Shown here: one piece after another, positions 24,201 through 43,836 of the stretch
Layout: each line of letters opens with the position of its first letter
Position numbering within the stretch: the stretch's first letter is position 1
Origin: a virus
Lineage: Duplodnaviria; Heunggongvirae; Uroviricota; Caudoviricetes
Direction: 5' to 3' (one strand)
Length of the DNA: 64,000 bases
IMG/VR virus record: IMGVR_UViG_3300050821_004987
Span: 64,577-128,576 of that record
Notes under the pieces: generated by a model
What the model was told of the DNA's origin: nothing
Seen by the model: the letters and a program-made list of their open reading frames with translations, nothing else
Database searches by the model: none
Made by a program: the position numbers and the translations under genes

Positions 24201-25608
24201 GGTTTTGCTACTCGATAGTCCCAGCTGGCGGCTATTCAATCCAAAGCTGCATTGTCATTTGGGAATTTTGTATTTGGCTGGTAGCTTGAGAGCAGCCGGT
24301 CATGATGTAAAAGTGCTAGACTGCCATCGGGTAACGGGGTGGGATGGTGAACGATTGATTCTGCACAAGGAACTGATGGAGCCCTGTGACATACTCGGGA
24401 TCTCAGCGACGACCGCGAATGTAAATTGGGGAGCCGAGATGGCTCGGGATTGGCCAGCGACGTTGAAAGTGCTTGGTGGAACGCACGTAACGCATATCAT
24501 GGAAGGGCCACATGAGCGATTCAAACAGAAGAAATACTTCGAGGGTTTCGATTACCTGATAGCAGGAGAAGCGGAGGAATCCTTTGTTAAATTCTGTAAT
24601 GGTTTTCGAGATCATGCTTCGTATGCTTTTAGGGCTTCTATTGCAGGCCTTGTTTGGTTTGACAGCTTTGGCTGTCATCATAATCCTGCCGCTGATCTAC
24701 CTGATGTTCAGCAGTTACCGCCACCCGCATTCGATCTTTGGGAAGCCGGCTTTGAGAAAGGTGCATTGAGTTCAACATCGGCCCATGGGAAAGAGTTAGA
24801 CGCAAATAATCTGATGACAGCTTCGATGTATACGGCCCGGGGATGCCCTTACGGATGTACATTTTGTGCAGATGCGAGGACGAAACTACGTGAAGAGACC
24901 ATTGAGCAGATCAAGAAAGAAGCTGAGGCGCTTGCGACCATCGGCGTACAAGCCGTTAGACTCCAGGATGATACTTTCACGATTAAGGCAGAGCGTTGTA
25001 GAACGATTGCAGACAGTCTTAGCGAATCCGGAATGCACTGGAGAGCCTGTACGCGAGTTAACCTTAGAGACGCCAGTCTCTTTCAGTACATGGCTAGTAA
25101 AGGATGTACAGAACTTGGATTCGGAATCGAGCACGGATCAGCCAGGATGCTCAAAGCCATGAACAAAGGTACGACACCAGAGGCGAATGAGATCGGCGTT
25201 AAGATGGCGCAGGACGCTGGGATCATAGCCCGCGCATTCCTGATGATTGGTTTCCCGGGTGAGACAGAAGAGTCGATCGACGAGTTGGAGGAATGGGTAC
25301 TGAGAGTTCGACCCTCGTCTGTCACAGTTTCTTTGTTTCAGCCTTTTCCAGGAAGTAACGTATGGAACCAGCCAGAGAAGTATGGAGTGGAGTTGCCAGA
25401 CAACGCCTTCGATCGATTTTGGCAGCTGGGTGGGGACGGAGATCCAGAGATGATGGTTCTCAGGCTGCCCTCGATTTCGAAAGAGAGATTGTTTTATCAT
25501 CGTCAGCGGTTGATCAAGATCTTTGAAGAAGAGATCGGTAAGCTCGATAGAACTCAAGTGCATGGCAACGTGGGAACGTTCGGACCGATGGAGCAAGTGA
25601 CAGCATGA
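24193..25608 (+). CDS. B12-binding-domain radical SAM enzyme (class B radical SAM, possible methylase)
   Basis: N-terminal B12-binding-like domain ('VLLLDSP...LAGSLRAAGHDVKVLDCH'). 'TARGCPYGCTFCAD' CxxxCxxC radical SAM cluster motif. Confidence 0.75.
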   Translation: MAKVLLLDSPSWRLFNPKLHCHLGILYLAGSLRAAGHDVKVLDCHRVTGWDGERLILHKELMEPCDILGISATTANVNWGAEMARDWPATLKVLGGTHVTHIMEGPHERFKQKKYFEGFDYLIAGEAEESFVKFCNGFRDHASYAFRASIAGLVWFDSFGCHHNPAADLPDVQQLPPPAFDLWEAGFEKGALSSTSAHGKELDANNLMTASMYTARGCPYGCTFCADARTKLREETIEQIKKEAEALATIGVQAVRLQDDTFTIKAERCRTIADSLSESGMHWRACTRVNLRDASLFQYMASKGCTELGFGIEHGSARMLKAMNKGTTPEANEIGVKMAQDAGIIARAFLMIGFPGETEESIDELEEWVLRVRPSSVTVSLFQPFPGSNVWNQPEKYGVELPDNAFDRFWQLGGDGDPEMMVLRLPSISKERLFYHRQRLIKIFEEEIGKLDRTQVHGNVGTFGPMEQVTA

Positions 25609-25811
25609 GATTGCATCCAGCTCCAGATCTTGTTGACGTGTCGTATCCTTGGTATGCGTCGAGAGTAAGGGCTATGTCCTTTTCGAAGCAGTTTTATACG
25701 ACAGAGAATGGATGGACAGTAGCTTCACAGATTTGTTTCAAGTGGTTGGCGACGATTAAGGAAGAGCTTGTGACTTTCAAGATTTTGAAGTGGAAAGGTG
25801 CAGTAAGTTGA
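25605..25811 (+). CDS. Small hypothetical protein
   Basis: 68-aa ORF, ATGA-coupled. Confidence 0.2.
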   Translation: MRLHPAPDLVDVSYPWYASRVRAMSFSKQFYTTENGWTVASQICFKWLATIKEELVTFKILKWKGAVS

Positions 25812-26746
25812 AAGTAGCACACGTAGTAAATAAGAATGCAGTCTGTGGCTATGCTGAGTACGCCAGAGAGCTGGACTGGGAACTTAAAAAAGAATTCGAG
25901 TCTAGCATTGTCGAGCCGGGTCAAGAGATCGGCGATGTAGATGTTGTGATAGCCAGCTATGGTTCGACAGAGACGCTGGGACTGACGCCACACCAGACCG
26001 AGGAGTGGCGACAGCAGGGAAAGAAAGTAATCTTGCTCCACAGAGAAAGTGAAGGAGATCTGGTAGAGAATTGTACAATACCTGTGAAGCACTTTCTTGG
26101 TCACGTGGATTCGATCATAACGCATGAGCCGACGAACTATAGCGAGTTCATTCCGATTTCGTTTCCAGCAGTAGTCAGTTTGCCGGATGCCGAGCTTAGA
26201 TTGGTAATCGGTTCGGCTGGGTTTTACGATACGATGAAGCATTTTGAGGACGTGGTCGAGCTGGCCAGACGGACGGGTGGGAATGTGAATTTGTCGATAG
26301 CACACTACTGGCGATCTGATCTGAGTCATGTAAAAAGAAACATAGCCGAGATGAAGAAGAAAGAAGTAGAAGGAGACTGGATCGAGTTAGTTGATTGGCC
26401 AGTAGCGACAGTGATCAGACAGTTAGCCAGATCGACGATCAACATGTTTTGGCACTGGCCGATCAATCCTTGTTCCCAGTCAACATCAGTCGGGATGGCG
26501 ATAGCTGCAAAGCGACCGTTGATTATTTCGCCTCACAGAAGGTTCCGAGTTATTTTGGAGCAGTATGCCGACGAAGTGTACGTAGCCAGGACAGGTGATG
26601 AAGCAGTCGGGATTGTGAAAGAGGTCTGGGACGCGATTAAGAACGGACGACCGGTGCGTATCCCAGACAGACTTTACAAGGCATATAACTGGGAGACTTG
26701 TGGTGAAACATACAGAAAGCTGATTCACAAGGTGATAGGACGATGA
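25790..26746 (+). CDS. Glycosyltransferase-like protein, paralogue 1 of 3
   Basis: 'LKVAHVVNKNAVCGYAEYAREL' parallels the N-termini of the next two ORFs. GT-B or GT4-like N-terminus. Confidence 0.45.
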   Translation: MERCSKLKVAHVVNKNAVCGYAEYARELDWELKKEFESSIVEPGQEIGDVDVVIASYGSTETLGLTPHQTEEWRQQGKKVILLHRESEGDLVENCTIPVKHFLGHVDSIITHEPTNYSEFIPISFPAVVSLPDAELRLVIGSAGFYDTMKHFEDVVELARRTGGNVNLSIAHYWRSDLSHVKRNIAEMKKKEVEGDWIELVDWPVATVIRQLARSTINMFWHWPINPCSQSTSVGMAIAAKRPLIISPHRRFRVILEQYADEVYVARTGDEAVGIVKEVWDAIKNGRPVRIPDRLYKAYNWETCGETYRKLIHKVIGR

Positions 26747-27702
26747 GAGTAGGACTCATAACAAGTTTTCCACCAGAACGATGCGGGGTTGCTTCGAATG
26801 CGGTTAATTTGGTGAACAACAAAGCAGATGATGTGGAGTATAAGATCATCGAAGGTTGCTCTTGGAGAAAACCTTTTACACACGATCAAGTAATGGCTGA
26901 GTCAGAAGATTGTGATATAGTGCATCTGACCTATGAGCGATCTTTACATCTGGGTTTGTTCCCAGGAACTTTTTACGGGTTGCGTGAGAAAGGTAAGAAG
27001 ACGATCATCACGTACTACAATATCTGGCCAGGAGACTATCAAGATGCTGAGATGGTGAAAGCTTTCGATGTCGTTATCGTGCCGGATGAGGTAGAGGCCA
27101 AGGTTCGTGGATATGAGTATGTTCCACATGGCGTGATGGAAGTAACTGAGCTAGGACCGTTGGGTTCAGTACGTTCGTTAGGGACAGCAGGGTTCCCAAC
27201 ACCAGCAAAAGGTTCATTGATAATGGCCGATGTTTGTCGAGAGTTAGGGTTACACTTTTTTGTTGTAGCCCCACTTTCCAGACACGCTGATGCAGCGTGG
27301 ATGAGAACAGAGATCGAGAAGAGATGTCAGACTTGTTCATTCGTCCATGAGTTTCTGTTGCAAGAGGAGATTGTTAGAATGCTGTCGTGCTGCACGATAA
27401 CAGCTTGGTTGTATACAGCTATACCACAGCAGTCTGGATTGTCTGGTTCAATCAGATTGGGTTGTGCTGCGAAGAGACCGATGGTAGCTTCGATGATGGG
27501 AATGTACCGGGATCTGTTTCAGTATGACGACGAGATCAATTTTATACAGACAGAGACGCCAACATTTGCAACAGTTTTACCAGTCGTTCAGTACGCACTG
27601 GAGCATCCAGAGAAGAGACCAGACCGAGTTGTGAAAGAGCAGAGTTGGAATAAATGTGGACAGATGTATGCTGAGATCTATAGAAAGGTTTTAGCAGCAT
27701 GA
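26743..27702 (+). CDS. Glycosyltransferase-like protein, paralogue 2 of 3
   Basis: 'MRVGLITSFPPERCGVASNAVNLVN' is a GT4-like start. ATGA-coupled. Confidence 0.45.
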   Translation: MRVGLITSFPPERCGVASNAVNLVNNKADDVEYKIIEGCSWRKPFTHDQVMAESEDCDIVHLTYERSLHLGLFPGTFYGLREKGKKTIITYYNIWPGDYQDAEMVKAFDVVIVPDEVEAKVRGYEYVPHGVMEVTELGPLGSVRSLGTAGFPTPAKGSLIMADVCRELGLHFFVVAPLSRHADAAWMRTEIEKRCQTCSFVHEFLLQEEIVRMLSCCTITAWLYTAIPQQSGLSGSIRLGCAAKRPMVASMMGMYRDLFQYDDEINFIQTETPTFATVLPVVQYALEHPEKRPDRVVKEQSWNKCGQMYAEIYRKVLAA

Positions 27703-28616
27703 ACGTCGGAGTACTGACACACGTTCAAGAAGCTTGTGGAGTGGCTGAGTATGGGGCTGATTTGATCAGGGAGCTTGGTCGGTATTTTGAAGTTGATAAG
27801 CTTGAGAAGATAGAAGAGTATGACGTTCTCGTAGTTAATTGGCATCCAGCAAAACTGAACTTGGACGCCGATAAGATTAGACGATGGCAGTCTCATGGCT
27901 GTAAGGTGATCGTACTTATCCACAATTCAGCAGAAGGAATGGTTGTTTCTGGAATTAACGATGCTCTTGCTGTAGCAGATGCAGTTGTAGCGCACGAGCC
28001 AGTAGAGTTCCGAGGAGATATCAAAAGATTTCAGCATATCGAGCATGGGATTCCAGAGGTAGATGTAAAGAATTTGCTCTACTCGTTTTCGATCGGAACG
28101 GCTGGCTTCGCGTTCGCTCATAGACAGTTTGATATGGTGATCGACTTAGCACAACAGTTCGGGATGTTTGGAAATATTATTTGTCCGCCGTATTCTTGTC
28201 ACGTTGACCCAGATGAGCTAGAGAAAAAGTGGCGTCAAAAACTGGGCAGCCATTTGCATATGATCAAGTCGTTTATGCCGAGAGAGTTTGTGATTAAGAC
28301 GCTGGCGAGCTCTTTGATAAACGTTTTCTGGTTCGAGTCTCAGAAAGCAAACGATGATCTGGGTCAGAGTGGTTCAGTTAGAATGGGAATAGCAGCTCAG
28401 CGGCCAGTCATCTTGAACAGATCCAGAAAGTTCAGAACACTGTTTCCCTACGAAGACGAGTTGTATTTTTGTAATAATAAAGAGGAAGCGGTGGCTGCGG
28501 TAATGACGATCTTGAAGACAGATAGTCCAAAGATGCCAAAGCGAGTGATGAAAGATCAAGCTTGGTCAAAGGTAGCACTAGATTGGAAAAAGCTGATCGA
28601 GGAAGTGGCAGCATGA
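27699..28616 (+). CDS. Glycosyltransferase-like protein, paralogue 3 of 3
   Basis: 'MNVGVLTHVQEACGVAEYGADLIRELG'. Same length class and layout as the previous two. Confidence 0.45.
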   Translation: MNVGVLTHVQEACGVAEYGADLIRELGRYFEVDKLEKIEEYDVLVVNWHPAKLNLDADKIRRWQSHGCKVIVLIHNSAEGMVVSGINDALAVADAVVAHEPVEFRGDIKRFQHIEHGIPEVDVKNLLYSFSIGTAGFAFAHRQFDMVIDLAQQFGMFGNIICPPYSCHVDPDELEKKWRQKLGSHLHMIKSFMPREFVIKTLASSLINVFWFESQKANDDLGQSGSVRMGIAAQRPVILNRSRKFRTLFPYEDELYFCNNKEEAVAAVMTILKTDSPKMPKRVMKDQAWSKVALDWKKLIEEVAA

Positions 28617-29332
28617 TCTTGTCACGAGTTATGAGAGAGAAAGATTACGACGAGCTGAAAGACGAAGGCCGCGTGATCACAGAGCTACACGACGAGATCA
28701 ATATGTGGCACGATACCCAGCACCATCATAGGCTATGGGAGTATGCACTAGCTCAGAAGGCTTTGAAAGGTGTTTATGGAGACTATGGAAGTAAGATCGG
28801 TTTACGAGTAGCAGACTTCGGATGTGGTGCCGGCTATTTGAGTCCAATTCTCTACAAGCTTGGGCATCATGTGTTCATGTACGATTGCTGGACGTTTCCG
28901 AATCAAGAAGAGTTTGCAATGGAGCAGATGAGAAGGATAGAACCTACGGGTGGATCCTATGAGATGCGGAATCGTTCGCTGGGCAGTCTGGTGGAAGAAG
29001 ACAAAGGCATGGACGCAGCCTTTTGTATATCGACACTCGAGCACATTAAGGACTATCGGAAGGCTTTTCGGGATCTACTGAGTACGGTCAAGCCAAGAGG
29101 ATTGGTATTTTTGACAACAGACTTTGGGACACATGAGACAGACGACTACAAGTGGGCCAATCTGCGGGCAGGAAAGATGTTTACAGCAGATACTTACAAC
29201 GAGTTGTACGCCATTGCTAGAGGATTGAATTTCGCAACAGTTCAAGGTGCGGCTGATTGGAAATGGGACGAGAGTTGTCGTTTGGTTTCAGATTATGGAT
29301 TCGCTTCTATGGCCCTTTGGAGATTATCATGA
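28613..29332 (+). CDS. Class I SAM-dependent methyltransferase
   Basis: 'VADFGCGAGYLSPIL...HHVFMYDC' motif I and post-I region. ATGA-coupled. Confidence 0.65.
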   Translation: MILSRVMREKDYDELKDEGRVITELHDEINMWHDTQHHHRLWEYALAQKALKGVYGDYGSKIGLRVADFGCGAGYLSPILYKLGHHVFMYDCWTFPNQEEFAMEQMRRIEPTGGSYEMRNRSLGSLVEEDKGMDAAFCISTLEHIKDYRKAFRDLLSTVKPRGLVFLTTDFGTHETDDYKWANLRAGKMFTADTYNELYAIARGLNFATVQGAADWKWDESCRLVSDYGFASMALWRLS

Positions 29333-29811
29333 GTGAGTTACTGCAAGCTCAGAGAATAGCTCGTCCCATCTTGGCTCGTATATTGCGTAATCGACCAGAT
29401 GATGTAGATGATGTATTACAGACGGCCTCTCTTAGGGCATTCGACAAGATGGGGCAGTTTGAGCACCGATCGAAATTTTCGTCTTGGTTCGTACGCATAG
29501 CTATCAGATCAGCTTTGATGCATTTGCGTACGAAAGAAATAAAGCACGAGCATCAATATATTCCTGTCGATGATCTAGATAAGCTTTCTGTTTTCGATCA
29601 AGAGACTCCAGAAGACTTTGTGATTAGAAAAGAGCTAGAGGATCATAGGAGAGAACGCCTCCACAAAGCGATACGGCTTTTAACACCGAAGCGTCAGAGA
29701 ACGATTTACGCTTATCTAGAAGATAGGCATACGAATACGTCAGCAGAAAAAGGAAGGTTGCACGCAGCTCGTGTACAGTTAAAGATGATTCTTACGGGAG
29801 AGAAAGCATGA
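29329..29811 (+). CDS. ECF-like sigma-70 family sigma factor
   Basis: Region 2 'DVDDVLQTASLRAFDKMGQFEHRSKFSSWFVRIAIRSALMHLR'. Region 4 'LTPKRQRTIYAYLEDRHTNTSAEKGRLHAARVQL'. Confidence 0.65.
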   Translation: MSELLQAQRIARPILARILRNRPDDVDDVLQTASLRAFDKMGQFEHRSKFSSWFVRIAIRSALMHLRTKEIKHEHQYIPVDDLDKLSVFDQETPEDFVIRKELEDHRRERLHKAIRLLTPKRQRTIYAYLEDRHTNTSAEKGRLHAARVQLKMILTGEKA

Positions 29812-30764
29812 TGAAAGTTGCACTGATAACGGGAGCATTTGGTCAGGACGGCTCGTACCTTACAGAGCATCTACTTGGGCTAGGGTACAGAGTTTTCAAA
29901 GGAACGAGAAGGGTACTCGACACACCAGATGAGATGGCAGTGTACTGCGACGTCCGAGACGAACTCAGCATTCGATCAGCAATAAAGAAAGCATGGCCCG
30001 ATGAGATTTATAATCTAGCCGGCCAAGTCTACGTCCCGATCAGTTGGGAACAGCCAGCAGAGACGTTCGATGTGAACACGAGTGGGCTGGCCAGGATTTT
30101 GAAAGTAGTCGAGCAAGTGAAGAAAGATACAAAGGTCTATCAAGCATCCAGCTCGGAGATGTTCGGTAATCATGAAGGCACTTGTAACGATCAGACGCCG
30201 ATGAATCCGACATCGCCGTATGGAGTTTCGAAATACGCAGCTCACAGATTGGTCAGCTTGTACAGGAGTAAGGGTCTGTACGTAGTGGCGGGAATTCTTT
30301 TCAATCACGAGAGCCCACGCCGTGGACATGAGATGGTGACGAGAAAGATCGCGCATCAATGTGCTCAGTGGGCACATGGATCAAAAGATATGTTGTCGTT
30401 GGGTAATATGGACTCGAGAAGGGACTGGGGTTTCGCTGGTGAGTACGTCAAGGCAATGCAATTAATGCTCCAGCCAGAGATCGCAACCGATTACGTTCTC
30501 GGAACGGGAGAGTCACATTCTGTCGCCGATTTCCTGGACGCAGCTCGGATAGAGATGGGTCTTGACGAAGACTTTGTGAAGGGGCATACTATTACCGACA
30601 CAAGGCTCACCAGAACGCAGGAAATCTACAACATGCGGGCAGACAATACCAAAGCACGGGTTTGTCTAGGTTGGGAATCAGAGATTGGTTTCCGGGAGTT
30701 GGTGCGGTTGATGACTTGGGAGGAGTTCAATAAGTTGCTTGGAAAGGAAAAGGTGACAGCATGA
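29808..30764 (+). CDS. gmd: GDP-mannose 4,6-dehydratase
   Basis: 'KVALITGAFGQDGSYLTEHLL', 'YGVSKYAAHRLV', 'GILFNHESPRRG...RKIA...LGNMDSRRDWGFAGEYV' align closely with Gmd. Confidence 0.85.
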   Translation: MMKVALITGAFGQDGSYLTEHLLGLGYRVFKGTRRVLDTPDEMAVYCDVRDELSIRSAIKKAWPDEIYNLAGQVYVPISWEQPAETFDVNTSGLARILKVVEQVKKDTKVYQASSSEMFGNHEGTCNDQTPMNPTSPYGVSKYAAHRLVSLYRSKGLYVVAGILFNHESPRRGHEMVTRKIAHQCAQWAHGSKDMLSLGNMDSRRDWGFAGEYVKAMQLMLQPEIATDYVLGTGESHSVADFLDAARIEMGLDEDFVKGHTITDTRLTRTQEIYNMRADNTKARVCLGWESEIGFRELVRLMTWEEFNKLLGKEKVTA

Positions 30765-30931
30765 AAGACATTCTACAGCCAGTGAATACGACACAGTCGT
30801 CTTCGCCTTCGATTACTCATGCAGCAATGGAGCCAGCAAACTGGCGGGCTCAAGGTCAGACGGACGTTCAGCAAGCGGTGAAAGACAATCCGACGAAGAA
30901 TCCGATCTGTCCAAAGTCAGTGACAAAGTGA
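30761..30931 (+). CDS. Small hypothetical protein (56 aa)
   Basis: ATGA start. Ends in a GTGA overlap with the next gene. Confidence 0.25.
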   Translation: MKDILQPVNTTQSSSPSITHAAMEPANWRAQGQTDVQQAVKDNPTKNPICPKSVTK

Positions 30932-31557
30932 ATCTGGCAAACACATTACGGTTACAGAATCTGAAGGCAGCGAACGCCGGAGCACAAGCGACAGTCGCCG
31001 ACTCCAGGTCTGCGGATGAATGGGTGAAACGTTGGCTGGACGACAAGAATAGAAGGCTGAACGATTTGCGAGCACGGTTGCATAATTTGCTAGATCATCC
31101 GCCAGCTTTGGACGAGTACTTGCGTCCGGAGATAAAGGCAGCGTATCGCAATGACAAAAACAACGGACCAAAAGATCAGATGCCAGGAAGGGTTGCCGGG
31201 ACAGGAAATTGGGCTGTGGTATCTCCGGAAGGAGAAATTATCAGTCGTTGGCCAACAAAGGCTGAAGCAGATGCTGCTGCATGGCCAGCATGGAGAGGTA
31301 TCAAGCCATCAGCAACGGGGGCATCGGGCGGAGCACGAGTAGTCAGACTAAGGCGTGTATCGGCCGCAGACATCTTTGAAGATGTAGAGCATGGGGATAA
31401 GACGAGACGCAAGTTTCTGAAGAAAGATAAGCCACAGATCGTCAAGGACGCCGACATATTGAGACTCAGAGATCGAAGGCCGTCTAGTCACGGTCAGGGT
31501 TCAGCCGGTACGGGTGGAGCTGGAGCTGGTGGTGCCGGTGGCGGAGTCGGAATCTAA
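30928..31557 (+). CDS. MNLAxTI N-terminal family protein (Gly-rich C-terminus)
   Basis: GTG start giving 'MNLANTLRLQ'. C-terminus 'GSAGTGGAGAGGAGGGVGI'. Confidence 0.4.
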   Translation: MNLANTLRLQNLKAANAGAQATVADSRSADEWVKRWLDDKNRRLNDLRARLHNLLDHPPALDEYLRPEIKAAYRNDKNNGPKDQMPGRVAGTGNWAVVSPEGEIISRWPTKAEADAAAWPAWRGIKPSATGASGGARVVRLRRVSAADIFEDVEHGDKTRRKFLKKDKPQIVKDADILRLRDRRPSSHGQGSAGTGGAGAGGAGGGVGI

Positions 31558-31569
31558 AAGGAGATTAAA

Positions 31570-31770
31570 ATGGCATTTCACATAGCGCCGTTGATCAGAG
31601 AGATGGAAAACGCAAGAGTTTCTGTAGGACTGCTATCGAGTCCAAATTCGACTGGCTATACGCAGCGTGTAGCACAAGAAGGCGTGACACAGCCGACGCC
31701 TTTGGTTACTCCGAATGGTGGGATCGGGAATTTCTGGTTCGCAAATCAAAAAACAGCACCAGCACTATAG
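31570..31770 (+). CDS. Small hypothetical protein
   Basis: RBS AAAAGGAGA before the ATG. 66 aa. Confidence 0.3.
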   Translation: MAFHIAPLIREMENARVSVGLLSSPNSTGYTQRVAQEGVTQPTPLVTPNGGIGNFWFANQKTAPAL

Positions 31771-31778
31771 GAGGCTGT

Positions 31779-31991
31779 ATGGATAAGCAGCCAAAGAGAA
31801 AAGAAGGGAACTTCATCAATTTGAAAGCTCCCGGTCCGACATCAGCCGTCGGGATTCAAGATATAGCTCTGGGTTGTTGGTCTACGTTTGGCGCACATGA
31901 GAGAACGGACGTAGCCAAGAAGATAGCCGAGCAGCCCAGATTGAATCCGGTAGATCCTAAGACGCTGAAGTCGGGTGGGGAGCTATCATGA
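31779..31991 (+). CDS. Small hypothetical protein
   Basis: RBS GGAGGCTGT. 70 aa. Confidence 0.3.
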   Translation: MDKQPKRKEGNFINLKAPGPTSAVGIQDIALGCWSTFGAHERTDVAKKIAEQPRLNPVDPKTLKSGGELS

Positions 31992-32245
31992 ATCTGGCAC
32001 AGACGATCAAGGTCTACATTCCATTGCCAGAGATTCAGGCCTTCATTGTCCGGAGTGGAGACAAGCACTGCGTGAAATCACACTCCGGAAAGAACTTGGG
32101 TTGTTATCAGTCTGCTGGTGGAGCAAAGAAAAGGTTAAAGCAAGTGGAGTATTTCAAACACGTAAAGGCAGCAGACGACGATACTTACTATGGGCCAAAT
32201 TCAGGTGGTATGGGTCCATCGGAAGCGCTTGGGAGTCCGGAATGA
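31988..32245 (+). CDS. MNLAxTI N-terminal family small protein
   Basis: ATGA-coupled. 'MNLAQTIKVYIPLPEIQAF'. Confidence 0.35.
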   Translation: MNLAQTIKVYIPLPEIQAFIVRSGDKHCVKSHSGKNLGCYQSAGGAKKRLKQVEYFKHVKAADDDTYYGPNSGGMGPSEALGSPE

Positions 32246-32835
32246 ATTTAGCAACAACAATCTTGCTGGCTGAGTCTGCGATCGCTCCGACGCACAGACA
32301 TCATGCGGTGATGTCGCCACACATGCGAGAGAAAGGCGGGCATACACACAGCGAGGTCAAGAGAGAGCATGTCAAACATTCTGCTGGGCATCACAGTGGG
32401 AAGCATGGAGTCCGACATAGTGGATTGAAGCATGGGAAGCCTGGTGGGAAGGGATTGCCAATAACGCATGTGAAAGTGCATCTGGTGAAGCCACACTTCA
32501 TCAAAGCTGATGCTTCGGCCAGCGATGTAGCTAATCATCATTCGATGCAAGAGCCATCAGCTTCGGATGTACAGATGTTACATTGGAAGACGAAGAGGGT
32601 CTTCGAGAAGATCAGGAAAAGAAATCTAGATCCATACGAAGCGTTGAAGGCTTCCAAGGAGACGGGTCCTTGTGGCTGTACGTTGAAGTTGGGTGAGAGA
32701 GTGACAGTGGACGGAGTGGGACGGGGAAAGATCAAAAGCAGGAATGAGAGGATGCTGACGGTGGCGTTGGACAATGGTCGTAATAGAGTAGTTGACCAGA
32801 AGTTCGTGCATCGTATGGCATCGGCACGAAGATAG
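32242..32835 (+). CDS. MNLAxTI N-terminal family protein with His-rich segment
   Basis: ATGA-coupled ATG inside the track ORF 31975..32835. 'MNLATTILLAE...HRHHAVMSPHMREKGGHTHSEVKREHVKHSAGHHSGKHGVRHSGLKHGK'. Confidence 0.4.
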   Translation: MNLATTILLAESAIAPTHRHHAVMSPHMREKGGHTHSEVKREHVKHSAGHHSGKHGVRHSGLKHGKPGGKGLPITHVKVHLVKPHFIKADASASDVANHHSMQEPSASDVQMLHWKTKRVFEKIRKRNLDPYEALKASKETGPCGCTLKLGERVTVDGVGRGKIKSRNERMLTVALDNGRNRVVDQKFVHRMASARR

Positions 32836-32859
32836 CCGATAGAAAGCAGGAACGTTTGA

Positions 32860-33141
32860 ATGGAGTATAAGCAACAGACAAGAGAGGTACACGTTGGAGA
32901 CGTTGTCATCTATCACAATCCGGTGGCCAAGCCTTTCAAGGCTTTGGTTACCGCGGTGTGGTCGGCAGTTTGCCTTAACGTCGTCGTCATTTCAGATGAT
33001 GCAGCTAAGACAGATCCGTACGGGCGTCAGATCGAACGGTTTACATCATTGTCGTGGGGAGGTAACATGACAGTGCATGGAAACTACTGGCGCTTCGAAG
33101 ATGAAGAGCCAAATCCAATAGCGGTACCAGCAGAGAAATAA
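32860..33141 (+). CDS. Hypothetical protein
   Basis: 93-aa ORF. Confidence 0.3.
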   Translation: MEYKQQTREVHVGDVVIYHNPVAKPFKALVTAVWSAVCLNVVVISDDAAKTDPYGRQIERFTSLSWGGNMTVHGNYWRFEDEEPNPIAVPAEK

Positions 33142-33199
33142 AGGATGGCGTGAGTGGGAACCGACGAGGGACCTAAGGCTCACGCAAAGGAGATAAAGA

Positions 33200-33400
33200 A
33201 TGGCACATACGCTCGACGTGCAAAAACTTCCGCAAGTATTCGAGGCGTTGAGAGAGAATCAACATAGGTTGACGCCTTGGGAATGCGATCGACTAGAAGA
33301 ATGGGAAGTTAGATATGAGAGAGATCCAGCAAATAAAATTTTCACAGATCCAGAAAGTAAAGTGATGGAGATCATCGAGCGGATGTATCTAAAGGTTTGA
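33200..33400 (+). CDS. Small hypothetical protein
   Basis: RBS AAGGAGATAAAGA. 66 aa. Confidence 0.3.
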   Translation: MAHTLDVQKLPQVFEALRENQHRLTPWECDRLEEWEVRYERDPANKIFTDPESKVMEIIERMYLKV

Positions 33401-33401
33401 C

Positions 33402-33806
33402 ATGAACATCATTGAGACAATGTTGTTTCAGGCAAATTCGATCTCGCACCCAGATTCCGAAGACACGACAGTGTGTGTTGATTTCGACGGCGTATTGTGT
33501 GAATCGAGTGGTCCTTACAACAGAGGACATTTCGGGCCACCGATTACAGAAGGATTGAAGCTGTTGAGACTTTGTCTGGAGCACAATTACACGGTCGTTA
33601 TTCTCACAGCCAGAAAGGAAACAGATTTGGTAGCTGGTTGGCTTAGGAAGCAGGGCTTCCCACATATGTTCGTGACAAATACGAAGGTTCCAGCATCTGC
33701 GTATTTGGATGATAGAGCGATACCGTGGGCTGCAGGAAAATCGAAGGCTGATGATGCGATCAAGTTTGTGAAAGATCCAAGGGCGACGTTGGGACTTCAT
33801 GTATGA
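33402..33806 (+). CDS. HAD-superfamily phosphatase-like protein
   Basis: 'VCVDFDGVLCE' is a DxD motif I. 'VVILTARKE' is a motif II-like Thr. 'YLDDRAIPW' is a motif IV-like. Confidence 0.45.
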   Translation: MNIIETMLFQANSISHPDSEDTTVCVDFDGVLCESSGPYNRGHFGPPITEGLKLLRLCLEHNYTVVILTARKETDLVAGWLRKQGFPHMFVTNTKVPASAYLDDRAIPWAAGKSKADDAIKFVKDPRATLGLHV

Positions 33807-34078
33807 AACAATCAGTAACAAAGATCGACGAAGAGTTAAGAGCAGCTGCCCGGGATTTGAAAGTTGTCTTGATGGAGTACAAGTCCGAGCAGGCAGATCC
33901 AGACGAGTCGGCTACTACGTACAAGGTCGAGCCATACAGTTATCGTAACGGTGGTAAGACATTCTTCGGCTTCGATCAGACGGCCAGATCGATCAAGGCT
34001 TTCAAGGTGGCGAACATCGTGAACGTCAAACAAACAGACGAGACGTACAAGCCACAGTGGCCGGTGGAGTTGAAATGA
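33803..34078 (+). CDS. Hypothetical protein
   Basis: ATGA-coupled. 91 aa. Confidence 0.3.
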   Translation: MKQSVTKIDEELRAAARDLKVVLMEYKSEQADPDESATTYKVEPYSYRNGGKTFFGFDQTARSIKAFKVANIVNVKQTDETYKPQWPVELK

Positions 34079-34761
34079 ATCTGGCAGTTACGATTTCTCT
34101 TTTAGCGGGTGGTCCCGGTTCCGGATGTAATCCAGCAGTGGGAAAGTGTGGTCGTTCTGCTTCTGCTAGAGATTTTGTTAAGAGTAGTTTAAGAAAAGGT
34201 TGGAGTATTAAAGACCGAGAAGCTCTTTTGAAAGAAGCAGATAAGATAAAGTTAGATAGCAGACTATTACAAGGGAAGCTATCTGTCATTCCTTTATCCT
34301 TGAAAGAAGCACAAGATCGTGGGCAGAAAGCTTTTTTCGATAGAAGTAGTAATCCTAACAACGAGCTTCATGTTTACCCAAAGTTTACAGATACTTTTGT
34401 TCATGAATTTGGTCATTGGTTAGACAAGAATTATGTTGATTTATCTAATAAGGGAACGCCGTCGGTTTCCAGACTTGGAATAGATAAGAAAGCTCTAGTT
34501 CTTGCTAAGAACGCAGCTCATGATGAGTATGTCCGAGCTCACGATTCAGCTTATAGAACTAAAGGTTATTTTAAGAATGTCGATGACCAGATGTCACAAG
34601 CGCCCCACGGGGTTAGTTTTTATGCTTTACATAACGAAAGAGAATGGTTTGCGGAATCTTTTGCACATTATGTGGCTGGTGGATCTCAAAGATCCTATTT
34701 AAGAGATGTAGCTCCTAAAACATACGCTTTGATGAACGACTTAGCGAATGGCTTAAAATGA
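34075..34761 (+). CDS. MNLAxTI / GGPGSGC family putative zinc metallopeptidase
   Basis: 'MNLAVTISLLAGGPGSGCNPAVGKCGRS' N-terminus. 'FVHEFGHWLD' HExxH zincin motif. Confidence 0.5.
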   Translation: MNLAVTISLLAGGPGSGCNPAVGKCGRSASARDFVKSSLRKGWSIKDREALLKEADKIKLDSRLLQGKLSVIPLSLKEAQDRGQKAFFDRSSNPNNELHVYPKFTDTFVHEFGHWLDKNYVDLSNKGTPSVSRLGIDKKALVLAKNAAHDEYVRAHDSAYRTKGYFKNVDDQMSQAPHGVSFYALHNEREWFAESFAHYVAGGSQRSYLRDVAPKTYALMNDLANGLK

Positions 34762-35489
34762 ACTTAGCGGCCACAATCGAGATCTACTCGAACCGGAAGC
34801 TTCATAAACGGCTGAAGTTTCAAGGGCTGGATATCTCTGTTGAGAACAAAGCCGGTTCGACGAGACGGGGAGTAGCTCCGGGTTGGGGTCCTTGGTCGAC
34901 GAAGATGAAGTTCGACTATGGTTACATAAAAGGTTCAAAGGGAATGGATGGTGGTGGGGTTGATTGTTTCATCGGGCCTAACCCAGCAGCAAAGAATGCG
35001 TTCGTCGTACATATTTTGAAGCAACCCGATTTTAAGACATACGATGAAGATAAAGTGATGCTGGGATTCAATTCCAAGAAAGAGGCCAAAGATGCTTTTA
35101 TGGCTCATTACGATAGCCCTAAGTTTTATGGCGGGATGGATGTACTCCGGATGGGTGAGTTCAAAAGGAAAGTCCTTGAGACTGCGACTACGGGCCCTCA
35201 TAAGATAGAAGCATGGGGAGAGCCTCAGGTTTATGATGGAGGATACCAGCATATAGCCGATACGCAAGTGATGTTCCATCCGCCGAGTCTGAAGAAAGCA
35301 AAGCCAGTGCCAGTCGACGATCCCATGGAAGAAGATAACCAGTTCCTAGATGTAACAAAACGGAAAGAGAGAGCGACGAAAGCCTTCCGGGATCGACTAA
35401 CAAAGCAACACACAGATGCTAATATGAAACCCTTGAATCGTACTCTCGTTTCTGGATTTCCCGCGATTGGTGTTGGTGGGTTTGGTTGA
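34758..35489 (+). CDS. MNLAxTI N-terminal family protein
   Basis: ATGA-coupled. 'MNLAATIEIYSNRK'. Confidence 0.4.
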   Translation: MNLAATIEIYSNRKLHKRLKFQGLDISVENKAGSTRRGVAPGWGPWSTKMKFDYGYIKGSKGMDGGGVDCFIGPNPAAKNAFVVHILKQPDFKTYDEDKVMLGFNSKKEAKDAFMAHYDSPKFYGGMDVLRMGEFKRKVLETATTGPHKIEAWGEPQVYDGGYQHIADTQVMFHPPSLKKAKPVPVDDPMEEDNQFLDVTKRKERATKAFRDRLTKQHTDANMKPLNRTLVSGFPAIGVGGFG

Positions 35490-36232
35490 TGGCTAGAAAA
35501 GCAATTAGGTGTAGATTTTGTCGTAATAGATTTGTTCCATATAGACTTGCGCAGACTTGTGATGAATGTAGGAATGCGAAACCATTTTGTCGATGTGGCT
35601 GTGGTCTAAGGGTTTTGTCCATGGTAGAGCGCAAAGGGGGTAAGATAGCTAAATATTTGCCTAGTCATAATGTCAATCTTTATGCCATAGAGAAGGGTGA
35701 GCAGTTAGCACGTGGTCGAGATGCCTATTGGAAAAATTTAACAAAGAAGGAACGACTAGAAGTTAAGAAAAGAAATTCTGAGAAAACTAAGAAGGTCTGG
35801 GCTTCGGGTGCTTATGATAATCAAGCGAAGAAGCTAAAAGATAGATGGGAGAATCTTTCAGCGAAAGAACGTGAAGTTCAAGTAAGAGCAGCTAGATCTG
35901 GTGCTCGCGTCAAGCCAAATAGGGCAGAAAGAAGATTGAACGAGATTCTTAGTAATAGTTTTCCCGGTGAGTTTAGAATGAATGTTCTTGGAAAAGTTAT
36001 AGTAGATGGTAGAGTTCCAGATTTTGTGAATGTGAACGGAAAGAAAGTTCTGGTAGAGCTGTTTGGAAATTACTGGCATGGAGAAGAGCGACGTGGGCAT
36101 TCTGAAAGGGAGGAAGAGCGGGAAAGAAAGAGTCATTTTAAGAAGTGGGGTTTTAAGACAGCGATCGTTTGGGAAAGGGACTTGAAAGATGAGAAGCTAG
36201 TAGAGAAAAAAGTTCGGGCGGTGTTGGCTTGA
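35486..36232 (+). CDS. Second DUF559/Vsr-like endonuclease with zinc-ribbon and NUMOD-like repeats
   Basis: 'CRFCRNRF...CDECRN...CRCGCG' zinc ribbon. 'VNGKKVLVELFGNYWHGEERRGHSER...KKWGFKTAIVWERDL' DUF559 core. Paralogue of ORF 19381. Confidence 0.55.
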   Translation: MMARKAIRCRFCRNRFVPYRLAQTCDECRNAKPFCRCGCGLRVLSMVERKGGKIAKYLPSHNVNLYAIEKGEQLARGRDAYWKNLTKKERLEVKKRNSEKTKKVWASGAYDNQAKKLKDRWENLSAKEREVQVRAARSGARVKPNRAERRLNEILSNSFPGEFRMNVLGKVIVDGRVPDFVNVNGKKVLVELFGNYWHGEERRGHSEREEERERKSHFKKWGFKTAIVWERDLKDEKLVEKKVRAVLA

Positions 36233-37572: not shown

Positions 37573-38859
37573 ATGATAGATGTAGCAGCAGATACGCGCC
37601 ACTCATATTTACTAGGTGGTTCAGTCGGTGCTTCCTCGCCCTTCACCGTAGCCAAAGCACTGGGTTCAGAGATATGGGACACGACCGGTAAGCGCTACAT
37701 AGACTGTACAGCGCAGGCTTGGAGTCTCAGTCTCGGACACAGCCATCCAAGAATCATTGAAGCTGTCTCAGAGCATCTGAAGAACTACGGACATATCAGA
37801 ACCAGTTTCGATACCGAGCCAAAATTGAAATTGGCTGAGAAGCTGCTTGAGATCGCTCCCGGAATGCAGAAGGTAGCTTTCTATCTCTCCGGTTCAGAAG
37901 CAGTAGAGGCTTCGATTAAGTTGGCTTTGAGAAATAAAAACGAGTCGTCGAGATCAAGTACTGTTGTTGCTTTGGAAGAGGGATTTCATGGGCGTACGTT
38001 CGCGACATCGGCCTTGAGTTGGGAAGGGCCAAATTATAATCCATTCAAGGCATGGATGAATCAGCCAGTGACGAGAATGAAGAGTGCCTATTGTTATCAT
38101 TGTCCAGTCGGCAAAGAGTTCAGTAGTTGCCATTATGAGTGCGTCGAGTTGGGAAACGCCGGTTATCAGCCAATAGCTTTTATCATGGAGCCGTTTCCGG
38201 GTAACGGTGGGATGATAAAGTTTCCACCAGATTATTTGAAGAAGATGCGAGAGAAAGTTGACGAGAGAGAATCGCTTCTTATTTTCGACGAGATTCAGAC
38301 TGGGATCGGTCGACTAGGTGATTGGTTTGCCTATACGAAATACAAAGTCATGCCAGATATTCTGGTGATCGGAAAAGGGTTGGGTGGTGGGTTTCCTCTT
38401 TTCGCCGTACTGACTGGGGAAAAGATTAAGAACGGGTTTCAGCCGGGAGATCATTCTTTTACGTTTGCGCATTTCTCGCCTTCGATGGTGGCTGCGTTGG
38501 AGACGATAGCCGTGATTGAAGAAGAAGAAATTTTGGATAACGTTCAGGTGATGGGTGAGCAGGTTGTTACGAGATTAGAGAAGATGAAACAGAAGTACAA
38601 GTTTATCGGAGACGTCCGAGGCGACGGTTTGATGATCGGAATCGAGATTGTGAAAGAAGGATCGAAAGAGCCAGCTCCAATCTTGACACACAAGTTGGTT
38701 GAGCGAGCAATGGAGAGGGGTGTGATCTTTGGAGAAGCCAAGTATGGTGGGTTGGGAAATATTATCAAGATCAAACCGCCGTTGAATATTTCTGATGAGT
38801 TGATGACAGAAGCGTTGGATGTATTAGAAGATATTTTCAGCAAAGTGATTCCATACTAA
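37573..38859 (+). CDS. Class III (acetylornithine/GSA/omega-type) PLP-dependent aminotransferase
   Basis: 'ILVIGKGLGGGFPL' (PLP lysine). 'LIFDEIQTGIGRLGDWFAY'. 428 aa with fold-type-I layout. Confidence 0.8.
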   Translation: MIDVAADTRHSYLLGGSVGASSPFTVAKALGSEIWDTTGKRYIDCTAQAWSLSLGHSHPRIIEAVSEHLKNYGHIRTSFDTEPKLKLAEKLLEIAPGMQKVAFYLSGSEAVEASIKLALRNKNESSRSSTVVALEEGFHGRTFATSALSWEGPNYNPFKAWMNQPVTRMKSAYCYHCPVGKEFSSCHYECVELGNAGYQPIAFIMEPFPGNGGMIKFPPDYLKKMREKVDERESLLIFDEIQTGIGRLGDWFAYTKYKVMPDILVIGKGLGGGFPLFAVLTGEKIKNGFQPGDHSFTFAHFSPSMVAALETIAVIEEEEILDNVQVMGEQVVTRLEKMKQKYKFIGDVRGDGLMIGIEIVKEGSKEPAPILTHKLVERAMERGVIFGEAKYGGLGNIIKIKPPLNISDELMTEALDVLEDIFSKVIPY

Positions 38860-38870
38860 GGACGGATGAG

Positions 38871-39542
38871 ATGATAATTCTTTGCACTTTAAGTGGGGGT
38901 TCAGACTCAGCTTACGCAGCTTACGCAGCGAAGCTGCTCTGGCCTGATGCTGAGTTTCATTCTTTGTTCGTCGAGTATGGGCAACCAGAAGTGGGTTCCG
39001 AGTTGCAAGCTTCTGTAAAGGTGCATAACAAGCTTGGGTTTGGGTCACATAGATGGCACAATGTCCGCATTCAGTGGCTATACAAGTTCGATCGAACGCA
39101 TCCAGATGATCTGAACTCTTTGTATGTTCCACACAGAAATTTAGTCATCGCCTCAGTTGGTGTCGCTTTAGCAGACCAGCTCGGAGCTGAGAAGCTGATC
39201 GTAGGTAACAAGAGTTTTAAGAAGACAGAAGGCGACTTCCTGACCTACGATGGGAATCGGGAATTCTACAAAGCGTTGGAAGCTGTCGTCCAGATGATTC
39301 AAGTGCACGGGCCAAAGCTGGAGATCGAGCCAACGCTTTCTATGGTGAATAAGTTGACGAGAGCAGATGTTTACTTCGGGCTCTGGGATCGTGGGTTTAA
39401 GTACGACGATACTTTCTCCTGTTGGTACGCTACAGTGAATGGAAAAGAGTGTGGGACTTGTAAGAATTGTGCAGAGAAGCAAGCTTTGTGGGTTAGTTGG
39501 TGTGGTAGGACTAGGGTAGGTCAGCATGCATCCACAGACTGA
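38871..39542 (+). CDS. queC: 7-cyano-7-deazaguanine synthase
   Basis: 'LCTLSGGSDSAYAA' PP-loop. 'YGQ', 'VPHRNLVIASVGVALA', 'FSCWYATVNGKECGTCKNCAEK' zinc site. Collinear with E. coli QueC. Confidence 0.85.
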   Translation: MIILCTLSGGSDSAYAAYAAKLLWPDAEFHSLFVEYGQPEVGSELQASVKVHNKLGFGSHRWHNVRIQWLYKFDRTHPDDLNSLYVPHRNLVIASVGVALADQLGAEKLIVGNKSFKKTEGDFLTYDGNREFYKALEAVVQMIQVHGPKLEIEPTLSMVNKLTRADVYFGLWDRGFKYDDTFSCWYATVNGKECGTCKNCAEKQALWVSWCGRTRVGQHASTD

Positions 39543-40230
39543 CATTGTGATTCCAGTTCACAATGCTCTGGAGTATGTCAGAGATTGTCTAGATTCTGTT
39601 TTTACAAAGACAAAAAATTTCAGATTCATTTTGGTAGATGATTTCTCGGATTTAGAAACAACAAAGCATTTGCACAGAGTTTTAGGACATCAGCCGACAG
39701 CATTGTATATTAGAACCGGGCAACAGAAGTGGTTCACGAGAGCTAGTAATCTTGGGTTGAGATTGGTCAGGACATCCAGATGTGTATTGTTGAATTCGGA
39801 TTGCGTTGTGGACGAAGGGTGGCTAGATGAGCTCTATGATGTTTGGGCTGAGGCCGAGTCAGTCATCGTTGGTAAAAGAATTGGTCTCGTTGGCTCCCAT
39901 CAAAGTATGGAAGAGCCGAGGCGTTGGGGTGAGTACGCTGAGCCAGGCTATGTTACGGGGCACTGTCTCCTACTTAGTATCCCGATTATCAGTGAGATCG
40001 CAGACAGAAGAGGAAATAGTGGCTGGTATCTTGACGAAGTGCACAGAGAAGCCTTGCACATAAATTCTGATCGCTTCCTCAGCTACGAGTTGAATCGTGC
40101 TGGCTATGCGACGGTAGCTTCTTTCAAGGCAGCTGTCGGACATCATGGTGGGAAGAGTTGGGGACATGATCTTGGGCGAATCGCCGGAGTACAGATTGGA
40201 GATCCACAGAAGGGTGAGATCTTCGGATGA
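39526..40230 (+). CDS. Family 2 glycosyltransferase
   Basis: 'DIVIPVHNALEYVRDCLDSV...FRFILVDDFSD' GT2 N-terminal and DxD region. Start overlaps the queC 3' end. Confidence 0.65.
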   Translation: MHPQTDIVIPVHNALEYVRDCLDSVFTKTKNFRFILVDDFSDLETTKHLHRVLGHQPTALYIRTGQQKWFTRASNLGLRLVRTSRCVLLNSDCVVDEGWLDELYDVWAEAESVIVGKRIGLVGSHQSMEEPRRWGEYAEPGYVTGHCLLLSIPIISEIADRRGNSGWYLDEVHREALHINSDRFLSYELNRAGYATVASFKAAVGHHGGKSWGHDLGRIAGVQIGDPQKGEIFG

Positions 40231-40234
40231 TGTT

Positions 40235-40242
40235 TGTATAAT
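40235..40242 (+). promoter_or_regulatory. Extended -10 box (TTGTATAATGAG family)
   Basis: 'tgtTTGTATAATGAGttt' lies just after the GT2 stop, roughly 170 nt upstream of the ATG at 40413. Confidence 0.4.
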
Positions 40243-40368
40243 GAGTTTGGAAGGGAAAGGGAAGCAAAGAAACGGAGGTGGCTATGCGAGGGGTTACCGG
40301 TTGTCTCGGAAAGCCCTCTAAAGAATAGTGATATCTGGTATGGCTGGATCTCACAATGTCAGCGATAA

Positions 40369-40388
40369 GGGGCTTCGAAAGAAGCCCC
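40369..40388 (+). promoter_or_regulatory. Stable GNRA-capped hairpin in 5' leader
   Basis: GGGGCTTC-gaaa-GAAGCCCC, 8-bp stem, 25 nt upstream of the ATG. Confidence 0.4.
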
Positions 40389-40412
40389 ATTAAAATTTCA
40401 GAAGGAGTCATC

Positions 40413-41051
40413 ATGGAAACAGTTTTGGGCAGAAGGCAGTTCTTTGAGATATCAGGCAAAGGAGTGTTGGGTTTGGCGGTGACGAGAGCTTTGGTTGTGG
40501 GTGGAGCTGCATTTGTAGTTGTCGGTTGTGGATTCAACATCGCAGAGATCGGCACTTGGGTCACCGTCGGTAACGGAGCGATCGGCAGTGTTCTGAATTT
40601 GTTAGTTGGCGCCGGGATTCTGGCCTGCGTAACTTGTTCCGTTTTGGCGAACGCAGCTGAAGCGGCGATCACAGCAATCGGAGTAGCTGTTACGAATTGG
40701 CAAAACGCCCCAGCAACAGACAAACAAACAACGCTTGAAAAGATTCAGCTGGCGTTGCAGGTTGGCTTGGAAGCGGCAACAGCCTTTTTTCAAAGTTTCT
40801 CAATTCCGGGAGGATCGTCGATAATCTCTTTGGTCTTGGGAATCGCTGGTTTGGTTTTGAACGCCATCGCCGGGTTCATCAGCCAAGTCGGTCTACCGCC
40901 TGCTCCGGCAGCCAAGCCAATGCTTCATGAGTATGAAGTAGCTGGTAACAAAGTGCAAGTGACGCCGACGTTGATGACAGCCAACCAGGCCAAATCCGCA
41001 CTAAACAAGTTGTTGGTGCAGTACGGTCATCCAGAATTGGTTTTGCACTAA
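40413..41051 (+). CDS. Polytopic membrane protein (small-residue-rich TM helices)
   Basis: RBS AGAAGGAGTCATC. Five or more hydrophobic Gly/Ala-rich segments. Confidence 0.5.
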   Translation: METVLGRRQFFEISGKGVLGLAVTRALVVGGAAFVVVGCGFNIAEIGTWVTVGNGAIGSVLNLLVGAGILACVTCSVLANAAEAAITAIGVAVTNWQNAPATDKQTTLEKIQLALQVGLEAATAFFQSFSIPGGSSIISLVLGIAGLVLNAIAGFISQVGLPPAPAAKPMLHEYEVAGNKVQVTPTLMTANQAKSALNKLLVQYGHPELVLH

Positions 41052-41070
41052 AATCAAGAACGAGGTTCCG

Positions 41071-42198: not shown

Positions 42199-42207
42199 GA
42201 GAACAAG

Positions 42208-43041: not shown

Positions 43042-43042
43042 G

Positions 43043-43823: not shown

Positions 43824-43836
43824 AAGGAGAAAAAGA

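Follow-up and report, generated by a model that had tools for sequence, protein, structure and literature searches.

The window examined here, a 64,000-nucleotide (nt) stretch of IMG/VR virus record IMGVR_UViG_3300050821_004987 (positions 64,577 to 128,576), comes from an uncultivated tailed phage of roughly 100–130 kb and carries, within 3.8 kb, a group of otherwise dissimilar genes whose proteins begin with the same short peptide. An earlier note on this DNA had singled out five genes sharing the N-terminal heptapeptide M-N-L-A-x-T-[IL], together with a relative at 12678, and had read the peptide as a common targeting or propeptide signal, for example a capsid-targeting sequence. The five starts (30928, 31988, 32242, 34075 and 34758) are real; an independent gene caller picked the same ones on ENA and Logan contigs, which hold identical copies of the proteins of this region. 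The cluster of five nevertheless overlooked a member, an open reading frame (ORF) starting at 33402 with MNIIETM, and the heptapeptide, though genuine, is merely the seven-residue tip of a bipartite leader of 10–28 residues, made up of an N-terminal head and an optional junction. The copies in the window are as follows (lengths in amino acids, aa):

30928–31557, + strand: gene A, 209 aa, modular, with a Gly-rich C-terminal tail; GTG start (GTG AAT CTG GCA AAC ACA TTA, V/M-NLANTL); head-only leader MNLANTLRLQ at 30928–30957
31988–32245, + strand: gene B, 85 aa; start ATG AAT CTG GCA CAG ACG ATC; head-only leader MNLAQTIKVY at 31988–32017
32242–32835, + strand: gene C, 197 aa, His-rich; start ATG AAT TTA GCA ACA ACA ATC; head-only leader MNLATTILLA at 32242–32271
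33402–33806, + strand: HAD-like phosphatase, 134 aa; head-only leader with variant head MNIIETMLFQ at 33402–33431
34075–34761, + strand: gene D, 228 aa, M34/anthrax lethal factor (LF)-type zincin with HEFGH; start ATG AAT CTG GCA GTT ACG ATT; head-plus-junction leader MNLAVTISLLAGGPGSGCNPAVGKCGR at 34075–34155
34758–35489, + strand: gene E, 243 aa, InPase-domain protein; start ATG AAC TTA GCG GCC ACA ATC; head-only leader MNLAATIEIY at 34758–34787, abutting the domain directly
12678–13400, + strand: gene F, 240 aa; degenerate head plus junction, MNVVDCMDLYFGGPGSGCRGNNCGRP, at 12678–12755
14849–14884, + strand: internal Cys-less junction GGPGSGRRPGGG, inside ORF 14195–15061 (288 aa)
16083–16130, + strand: internal second-flavour junction GTSEGAMKGWDVRGRK, inside ORF 15858–16439 (193 aa)

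The five starts agree in M/V-N-L-A-x-T-[IL] and, as the earlier note had claimed, differ at synonymous positions, with Leu-Ala written ctggca three times and ttagca and ttagcg once each. The proposed coupling to upstream stops also holds, all five start codons overlapping the preceding stop as ATGA or GTGA, but the overlap is partly automatic because the second codon is AAY, and ATG-AAY holds TGA in the +1 frame. Gene F is indeed related to gene D, through the GGPGSGC..CGRP junction and not through the heptapeptide, its head being degenerate (MNVVDCMDLYF). Behind the leaders the proteins are unrelated, as had been supposed: BLASTP found no significant similarity between the cargo parts except that of D and F (8e-4), which runs via the junction. 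DNA repeats among the starts reach at most ~16 nt and occur in three of the five.

At no other start codon, in any of the six frames of the window, does xNLAxT occur. A control of 861 kb of unrelated bacterial DNA, in which ORFs of at least 45 aa were counted, yielded 2 starts matching xN[LI]xxT[ILVM]; the chance expectation is ~0.15 such starts per 64-kb window, against six observed within 3.8 kb. Internal NLAxT is matched three times (15124, 16695 and, on the minus strand, 19939), with a rough chance estimate of ~2, and we regard the NLAMT copies at 15124 and 16695 as fortuitous, not as leader instances. Their number fits chance; their shared, nearly identical DNA, AATCTGGC[AC]ATGAC, is curious. 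The Met of the copy at 16695 is the called start of ORF 16707–17144.

Homologues of the window proteins

Gene D matches the Pfam ATLF family (4e-11; 43.4 bits against a cut-off of 27.4) with a domain that begins at residue 109. Its AlphaFold2 (AF2) model has a predicted local distance difference test score (pLDDT) of 79.7 overall and below 50 for residues 1–25, and the best Foldseek matches are the Pro-Pro endopeptidases PPEP-1/2/3 and anthrax LF (E value 6e-5, TM-score ~0.48). Across 12 homologues H110, H114 and E190 never vary and E111 hardly does; the sequence thus has the HExxH motif and downstream Glu of the M34 family, and the modelled fold is that of a zincin. These homologues are ~30% identical overall, and the leader accounts for 12 of their 18 invariant columns. 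Proteins 29–35% identical to D begin MNLAATVSLFFGGEGSGCNPAVGHCGR and MNIVSTIQIHAGGPGSGCNPAVGRCGR, and four proteins unrelated to D have only the first ~27 residues in common with them. An IMG/VR search with the zincin returned no relatives.

The InPase domain of gene E (Pfam, 3e-36) matches PHROG families of minor head, DarB-like and giant proteins, in which the InPase part is terminal. Orthologues of E begin MNLTATIALY, MNLATTIELY or MNLETTIQIY. An IMG/VR search with E found two distant loci only (L001 and L002), 47–50% identical in the domain and both without the leader, which is therefore specific to this lineage. The phosphatase matches phrog_1238 and phrog_415, with sub-threshold Pfam matches, and its orthologues begin MNLFETLRFQ (locus L005) and MKLSETIRLL (L006). 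For genes A, B, C and F neither Pfam nor PHROG gave a significant family match, and NCBIfam scans of A and F were likewise negative. Gene B matches weakly phrog_3684, of unknown function; its L005 orthologue begins MNLEETIRFY, and the IMG/VR locus L012 encodes a fusion of a B-like domain with a junction and another domain. For gene C, a comparably His-rich protein with a leader-like start (MRLDGAINLYAEG...GTSEGATKGWDARGRGR) was recognized by eye, unaligned, in the head-tail module of L018 (5535–6068).

Gene A gave an AF2 model too poor to use (pLDDT 57), and its family is instructive for the leader. Nearly all of its 29 homologue clusters begin M[NKR]Lxx[TAV][ILM]; in three variants the first ~60 residues are gone and the protein restarts with MNLLASMELY, MNLATTIDLY or MNIAAAMNLY, and other homologues contain inserted domains with a junction ahead of them. 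The leader is kept in related-phage orthologues only ~30–35% identical in cargo, and the truncated A homologues bear it anew at their new N-terminus; together with the varied codons of its Leu3 (below), these results dispose of the possibility, raised in the earlier note, that it is a by-product of local duplication.

The C-terminal tail of gene A (...RRPSSHGQGSAGTGGAGAGGAGGGVGI, 31497–31554) is among the most conserved parts of its family, with many invariant columns, and protein E also has a Gly-rich hydrophobic end (GFPAIGVGGFG). These ends might constitute a second, C-terminal signal.

Anatomy, spread and cargo of the leader family

The head follows the consensus M-N-L-x-x-T-[ILV]-x-[IL]-[YFLH] and is always N-terminal. 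Among 119 representatives, N2 is kept in 82%, L3 in 87%, T6 in 69%, [ILV]7 in 95% and [IL]9 in 94%, and the sequence logo shows S/E/D/T at position 8, I/L at 9 and Y/F/L/H at 10. The optional junction comes in several flavours: GGPGSGC-NPxxGx-CGRP, GGPGSGC-xGxN-CGRP, GGPGSGR.. and GTSEGAxKGWDxRGRG. In L021 and L022, genes adjacent to the portal have leader-like heads followed by the GGPGSGR[HKR] variant seen at 14849. The motif of the 16083 junction follows a head in L005 (795 and 9537) and L009 (12712); in the A homologue P0173 it stands ahead of an inserted domain. Autoproteolysis at the junction Cys/Asn was set aside because Cys-less junctions (GGPGSGR.., GTSEGA..KGW) take the same position.

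Codon usage was analysed in 30 leader instances from four distinct phages. N2 and L3 are each conserved in 28/30 and T6 in 30/30, while Leu3 is written with all six Leu codons, both CTN and TTR. Third codon positions carry 0.0–0.9 bits where the amino acids are invariant, the 30 nt upstream of the start hold little information, and residues 4, 5 and 8 are free to vary. Since the cargo is unrelated and Leu3 uses six codons, the constraint lies on the protein. A leader of 10–28 residues that is better conserved than the catalytic domains behind it must bind something specific, and the low pLDDT of residues 1–25 in the model of D fits a linear motif that would require a partner.

A 32-position profile of head and junction, searched against 1.84 billion representative proteins, matched 436 clusters at E ≤ 1e-3, of which 68 reached E ≤ 1e-10. 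The leader lies at residue 1 in 133 of the best 150 matches, and 119 of these 133 have G.GSGC at a fixed offset of 12. The remaining top matches are large multi-domain proteins with 2–8 internal junctions, spaced 100–350 residues apart between Pfam domains (52 internal copies altogether). Protein P0102, for example, is laid out as junction at 40, ADP-ribosyltransferase (ART) at 112–267, junction at 331, NUDIX at 377–486 and junction at 524, and P0044 begins with the head MNLQTSIELQ and has junctions solely between its domains. From these layouts, the head occurs once per polypeptide and the junction once per domain boundary.

The cargo is diverse. A Pfam scan of 131 leader proteins identified 11 ATLF zincins, ~6 GNATs, 3 zeta toxins and 2 RelA_SpoT proteins, besides InPase, NUDIX and several ART families including ART-PolyVal; Tpt1 and PI3/4-kinase-like matches are weak, and the majority of the proteins have no match. 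Leader genes also occur in arrays, with 7–10 leader-start genes per 12–20 kb in L005, L006 and L009/L010; consecutive runs reach 7–10 genes (L006, L214), the one in L214 having seven. The array in L006, comparable to that of the window, also contains a gene for a Vsr/DUF559-type endonuclease.

Nucleotide-level scans added less. Scanning metagenome DNA for Y[AG]GGPGSGC gave many spurious GC-rich matches, with ~19 true N-terminal leaders and the L214 array, and a scan of genome collections for GGPGSGCNP was dominated by apparent proline iminopeptidases (HGGPGSGCNP), mostly from Methylophilaceae, and is uninformative on the host. A tblastn search of cultured phages with the consensus leader and a GGPGSGNFGHAGRPG motif found no match, the low-complexity filter having probably masked both; similar motifs may occur in minor head proteins of cultured phages. 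None of the NCBIfam models or PDB sequences covers the leader, and Pfam finds only the ATLF domain in D. The motif is not mentioned in the paper on polyvalent proteins (PMC5512222), a word search of the paper on MuF toxins (Jamet et al. 2017) found none of the related terms, and a full-text literature search for leader peptide strings returned no paper. As far as these searches reach, the leader family is previously undescribed.

Proposed function and alternative explanations

The part of the earlier interpretation that invoked a common N-terminal signal stands: the leader is conserved at the protein level, and it is very probably a sorting or processing leader of some kind acting as a peptide. 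Of the specific functions, the capsid-targeting role given there as an example is the best supported, on circumstantial grounds, and we assign a probability of about 0.5 to the leader being a capsid-targeting and processing signal for injected effectors. This reading draws on the tag-linker-enzyme layout, the effector repertoire, the recurrence of the junction between the domains of large proteins, the zincin that itself bears the leader, and the copies adjacent to portal genes in relatives. In L021, whose portal is 45% identical to that of the present phage, the order is putative SPFH protein, portal, a 109-aa gene starting MDLRTTITLHCGGPGSGRHKG and a 548-aa gene, with a junction-bearing 102-aa gene further on; in L018 (portal 68% identical) the gene immediately after the head-tail adaptor (phrog_442) is the leader-like, His-rich one with a GTSEGA junction.

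We propose that an uncultivated phage clade with genomes of ~90–130 kb uses the bipartite leader as follows. The head would act as a short linear sorting tag that brings effector enzymes into the assembling virion, among them the zincin, InPase, phosphatase, ARTs, GNATs, zeta-toxin-like kinases, RelA/SpoT proteins and others, and the tagged effectors would be delivered with the DNA at the next infection. The optional junction would most likely serve as a Gly-rich flexible spacer and proteolytic processing site, for which the leader-tagged M34-type zincin of gene D is the prime candidate protease. A fuller version, which we hold only tentatively and at somewhat less than even odds, is that the head is a portable 10-residue label used across the clade to load dozens of interchangeable toxin-like enzymes for injection, the junction being cut by a co-packaged M34 zincin or else anchoring the cargo to a component of the head by way of a shared metal site. 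In that case it would represent a second, independently evolved capsid-targeting system.

The obvious precedent is the T4 capsid-targeting sequence (CTS), of which 10 N-terminal residues suffice and whose cargo (IPI–III, Alt) is otherwise unrelated (PMC9026906, PMC3012670). As there, a very short N-terminal peptide of about 10 residues is the sole thing common to unrelated proteins, the cargo includes host-modifying enzymes (T4 Alt being an ART), and the tag precedes the cargo with optional proteolytic removal. The two differ in that there is no sequence resemblance, the phage lineages are unrelated, T4 has no Gly/Cys-rich junction, which here also separates the domains of giant proteins, and virion loading is here a prediction from sequence and gene context. 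By analogy the leader may be functionally like the T4 CTS, but it is not a member of that family.

The cargo recalls the polyvalent proteins, which Iyer et al. 2017 (PMC5512222) argued to be delivered with the DNA at invasion and processed by their own zincin domains. The same effector repertoire is found here (zincin metallopeptidase, InPase, RelA/SpoT, ART, GNAT, zeta-toxin-like kinase and NUDIX; domain list in PMC5512222), and related large proteins have the junction between these domains. Polyvalent proteins combine 2–15 effector domains, as do the related P0010, P0011, P0015, P0044 and P0102, whereas the window genes are ‘solo’, D and E having one Pfam domain each. ORF 14195–15061 shows by eye a ParB/sulfiredoxin-like DGKHRFKAA motif ahead of its GGPGSGRRPGGG junction, with no Pfam or PHROG match; the motif would match the DdrB-ParB domains of polyvalent proteins. 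MuF polymorphic toxins (Jamet et al. 2017) likewise place variable toxin domains on a constant module thought to bring them into the phage head, but there the module is a folded MuF domain, a few hundred residues long, and not a 10–28-residue peptide without confident structure.

Cargo-loading peptides of encapsulins and encapsulation peptides of bacterial microcompartments offer a further parallel. There a short terminal peptide with a flexible Gly-rich linker addresses enzymes to the shell, and encapsulin shells have the HK97 fold in common with phage capsids. Such peptides are usually C-terminal, and their motifs differ from that of the leader.

Several points weigh against the capsid-targeting and processing proposal. 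The main cluster of the window lies amid sugar- and nucleotide-modification genes, ~14 kb upstream of TerL and ~30 kb from the portal, outside the head module. Beside the portal in L018 and L021, PHROG annotates the head-tail adaptor only, so that the labels protease/scaffold and major capsid protein given to those neighbours are positional guesses. The head-only proteins A, B, C and E have no obvious cleavage site, so processing is not general; nor does the logo of 119 leaders contain a T4-type L/I-x-E cleavage site, with no conserved Glu two residues past L3 or I7. The match of P0011 to MuF/SPP1-gp7 is below the curated cut-offs of both Pfam and NCBIfam (22.8 against 29.6 bits and 21.2 against 39.65). 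At Thr6 the codon ACA makes up 77% of instances, compared with 33% at Thr positions across a set of long genes from the window, so some RNA-level preference near the start is possible. No receptor for the leader was identified, and the lineage has no cultured relative, its portal being at most 22% and its TerL ~25% identical to any cultured-phage record.

The setting of the cluster among metabolic rather than head genes is also what favours a docking tag, through which the head would recruit enzymes to a common intracellular hub, such as an A-family protein, a chaperone or a membrane platform, with the junction a flexible linker only. The GrpE-like, SPFH/Band 7 and VWA proteins of the window are possible platforms, the A-family proteins are themselves modular carriers with the junction ahead of inserted domains, and head-only proteins would need no cleavage. 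Yet the cargo corresponds to a set inferred to act at invasion, leader or junction genes adjoin portal or adaptor genes in relatives, and no hub was identified; we regard docking as unlikely.

A pro-peptide function without packaging, in which leader and junction are a substrate handle for the co-encoded M34-type zincin that trims or activates toxic effectors, would account for the zincin being the commonest cargo (11/131, with at least one per related locus), for junctions at domain boundaries and for the fold matches to the site-specific endopeptidases PPEP and anthrax LF; zincin peptidases have been predicted to process polyvalent proteins (Iyer et al., PMC5512222). It does not account for head-only proteins that have no junction, nor does a cleavage site alone explain the strict N-terminal position of the head, since internal junctions lack MNLxxT. 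Moreover, 10–28 residues without confident structure are unlikely to inhibit such different enzymes, and this alternative, too, seems doubtful.

An export leader of double-glycine type, with [IL]-[YF]-[AG]-G-G read by a peptidase-containing ATP-binding cassette (ABC) exporter or another secretion route, appears very improbable. As in the leaders of bacteriocins and other ribosomally synthesized and post-translationally modified peptides, one conserved N-terminal leader here precedes many variable products, and Gly-Gly stands behind a short hydrophobic pattern, at residues 12–13 in 119/119 fixed-offset leaders; cleavage after GG or AG is frequent among the maturation proteases of viruses and bacteriocins. 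However, GG is absent from A, B, C, E and the phosphatase (5/7 window leaders), and the cargo consists of whole enzymes with cytoplasmic targets. Typical double-glycine leaders run to 15–30 residues, usually with the consensus LSxxELxxIxGG, which is absent here, and 11–13 residues are too short. Among the Pfam and PHROG matches for those larger ORFs of the window that were scanned, and in the precomputed gene tables for the related loci, there are neither C39 peptidases nor ABC transporters. The head, in which polar and hydrophobic residues alternate without RR, has neither the hydrophobic core (7–15 residues) of a Sec signal nor a twin-arginine (Tat) motif.

Still less can be said for a nucleic-acid signal, whether an element for translation initiation or coupling or a site of recombination at which effector cassettes are exchanged, with the peptide as by-product. 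ATG-AAY does give the ATGA overlap, three of the five starts have the 11-mer TGAATCTGGCA in common, codons 6 and 3 show an excess of ACA and CTA, respectively, and conserved junctions could aid cassette exchange, as in polymorphic toxins. The six Leu codons, low third-position information, free residues 4, 5 and 8, absence of anything conserved upstream, and persistence of the motif over 436 clusters with different codon usage make this highly improbable. A leftover of recent local duplication, for which the clustering of the genes within 3.8 kb might speak, can be discarded, given unrelated cargo, DNA identity of at most ~16 nt, and a leader that persists on orthologues in distant phages and reappears at the new N-terminus of truncated proteins.

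Should the leader prove to be a signal for encapsidation and processing, it would provide a simple sequence rule for finding injected effectors in metagenomic phages (over 400 clusters, most with uncharacterised cargo), a mechanism for the subdivision of polyvalent proteins that has so far merely been predicted, and a short, portable tag with which foreign proteins could be packaged in phage particles, a use to which the T4 CTS has already been put. The binding partner of the leader is worth finding even if it does not belong to the capsid.

Genomic setting and phage lineage

All long ORFs of the window lie on the + strand. Genes of the window recur on metagenomic contigs of up to 128,576 bp, and a megablast search of cultured phages with the region found no match. 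TerL occupies 49441–51159, the portal lies ~3.5 kb past the window end, and the genes upstream of the window are of replication type, not head genes. The other features referred to above are:

24193–25608, + strand: B12-binding radical-SAM enzyme
37573–38859, + strand: aminotransferase
38871–39542, + strand: QueC
53329–54336, + strand: VWA protein, near the SPFH gene
59329–60357, + strand: GrpE-like protein, near the SPFH gene
62677–63612, + strand: SPFH/Band 7 protein, a few genes upstream of the portal

Epimerases, glycosyltransferases, the B12-radical-SAM enzyme, QueC and the aminotransferase make up a sugar- and nucleotide-modification set, located at 17623–30764 and 37573–45898, that is unusually large for a phage. 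It also includes several NAD-dependent epimerases/dehydratases and methyltransferases, and suggests DNA hypermodification or surface-glycan remodelling. Just upstream of an epimerase gene and the leader cluster, 29257–29811 encodes a sigma-70 region-2 protein, an extracytoplasmic function (ECF)-like sigma factor that could set the timing of leader-cluster expression. The gene that follows E (35486–36232) has a Cys-rich N-terminus and no Pfam match.

At the other end of the window, gene F and the two ORFs with internal junctions come after very large Ig-domain proteins and an endolysin-like gene. The Ig-domain proteins (1155–5204) are followed by an 1876-aa protein (6711–12341) with many copies of a short repeat resembling TLSDAL.[VI]GYG, which may be a fibre or decoration protein because it comes after the Ig-domain proteins. 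In the identical gene of L014 these repeats gave false ‘head’ matches at internal TTG codons.

Near the portal, an apparent counterpart of the SPFH/Band 7 gene was recognized by eye alone at L021 8765–9751, directly upstream of the portal. In L016 15493–16685, just past the window end, the first gene after the portal encodes only 223 aa, which by eye correspond to the N-terminal part of the 506–548-aa proteins at that position in L018 and L021. The next gene is one for an HNH endonuclease, and the head gene after the portal may be split or interrupted by a homing endonuclease.

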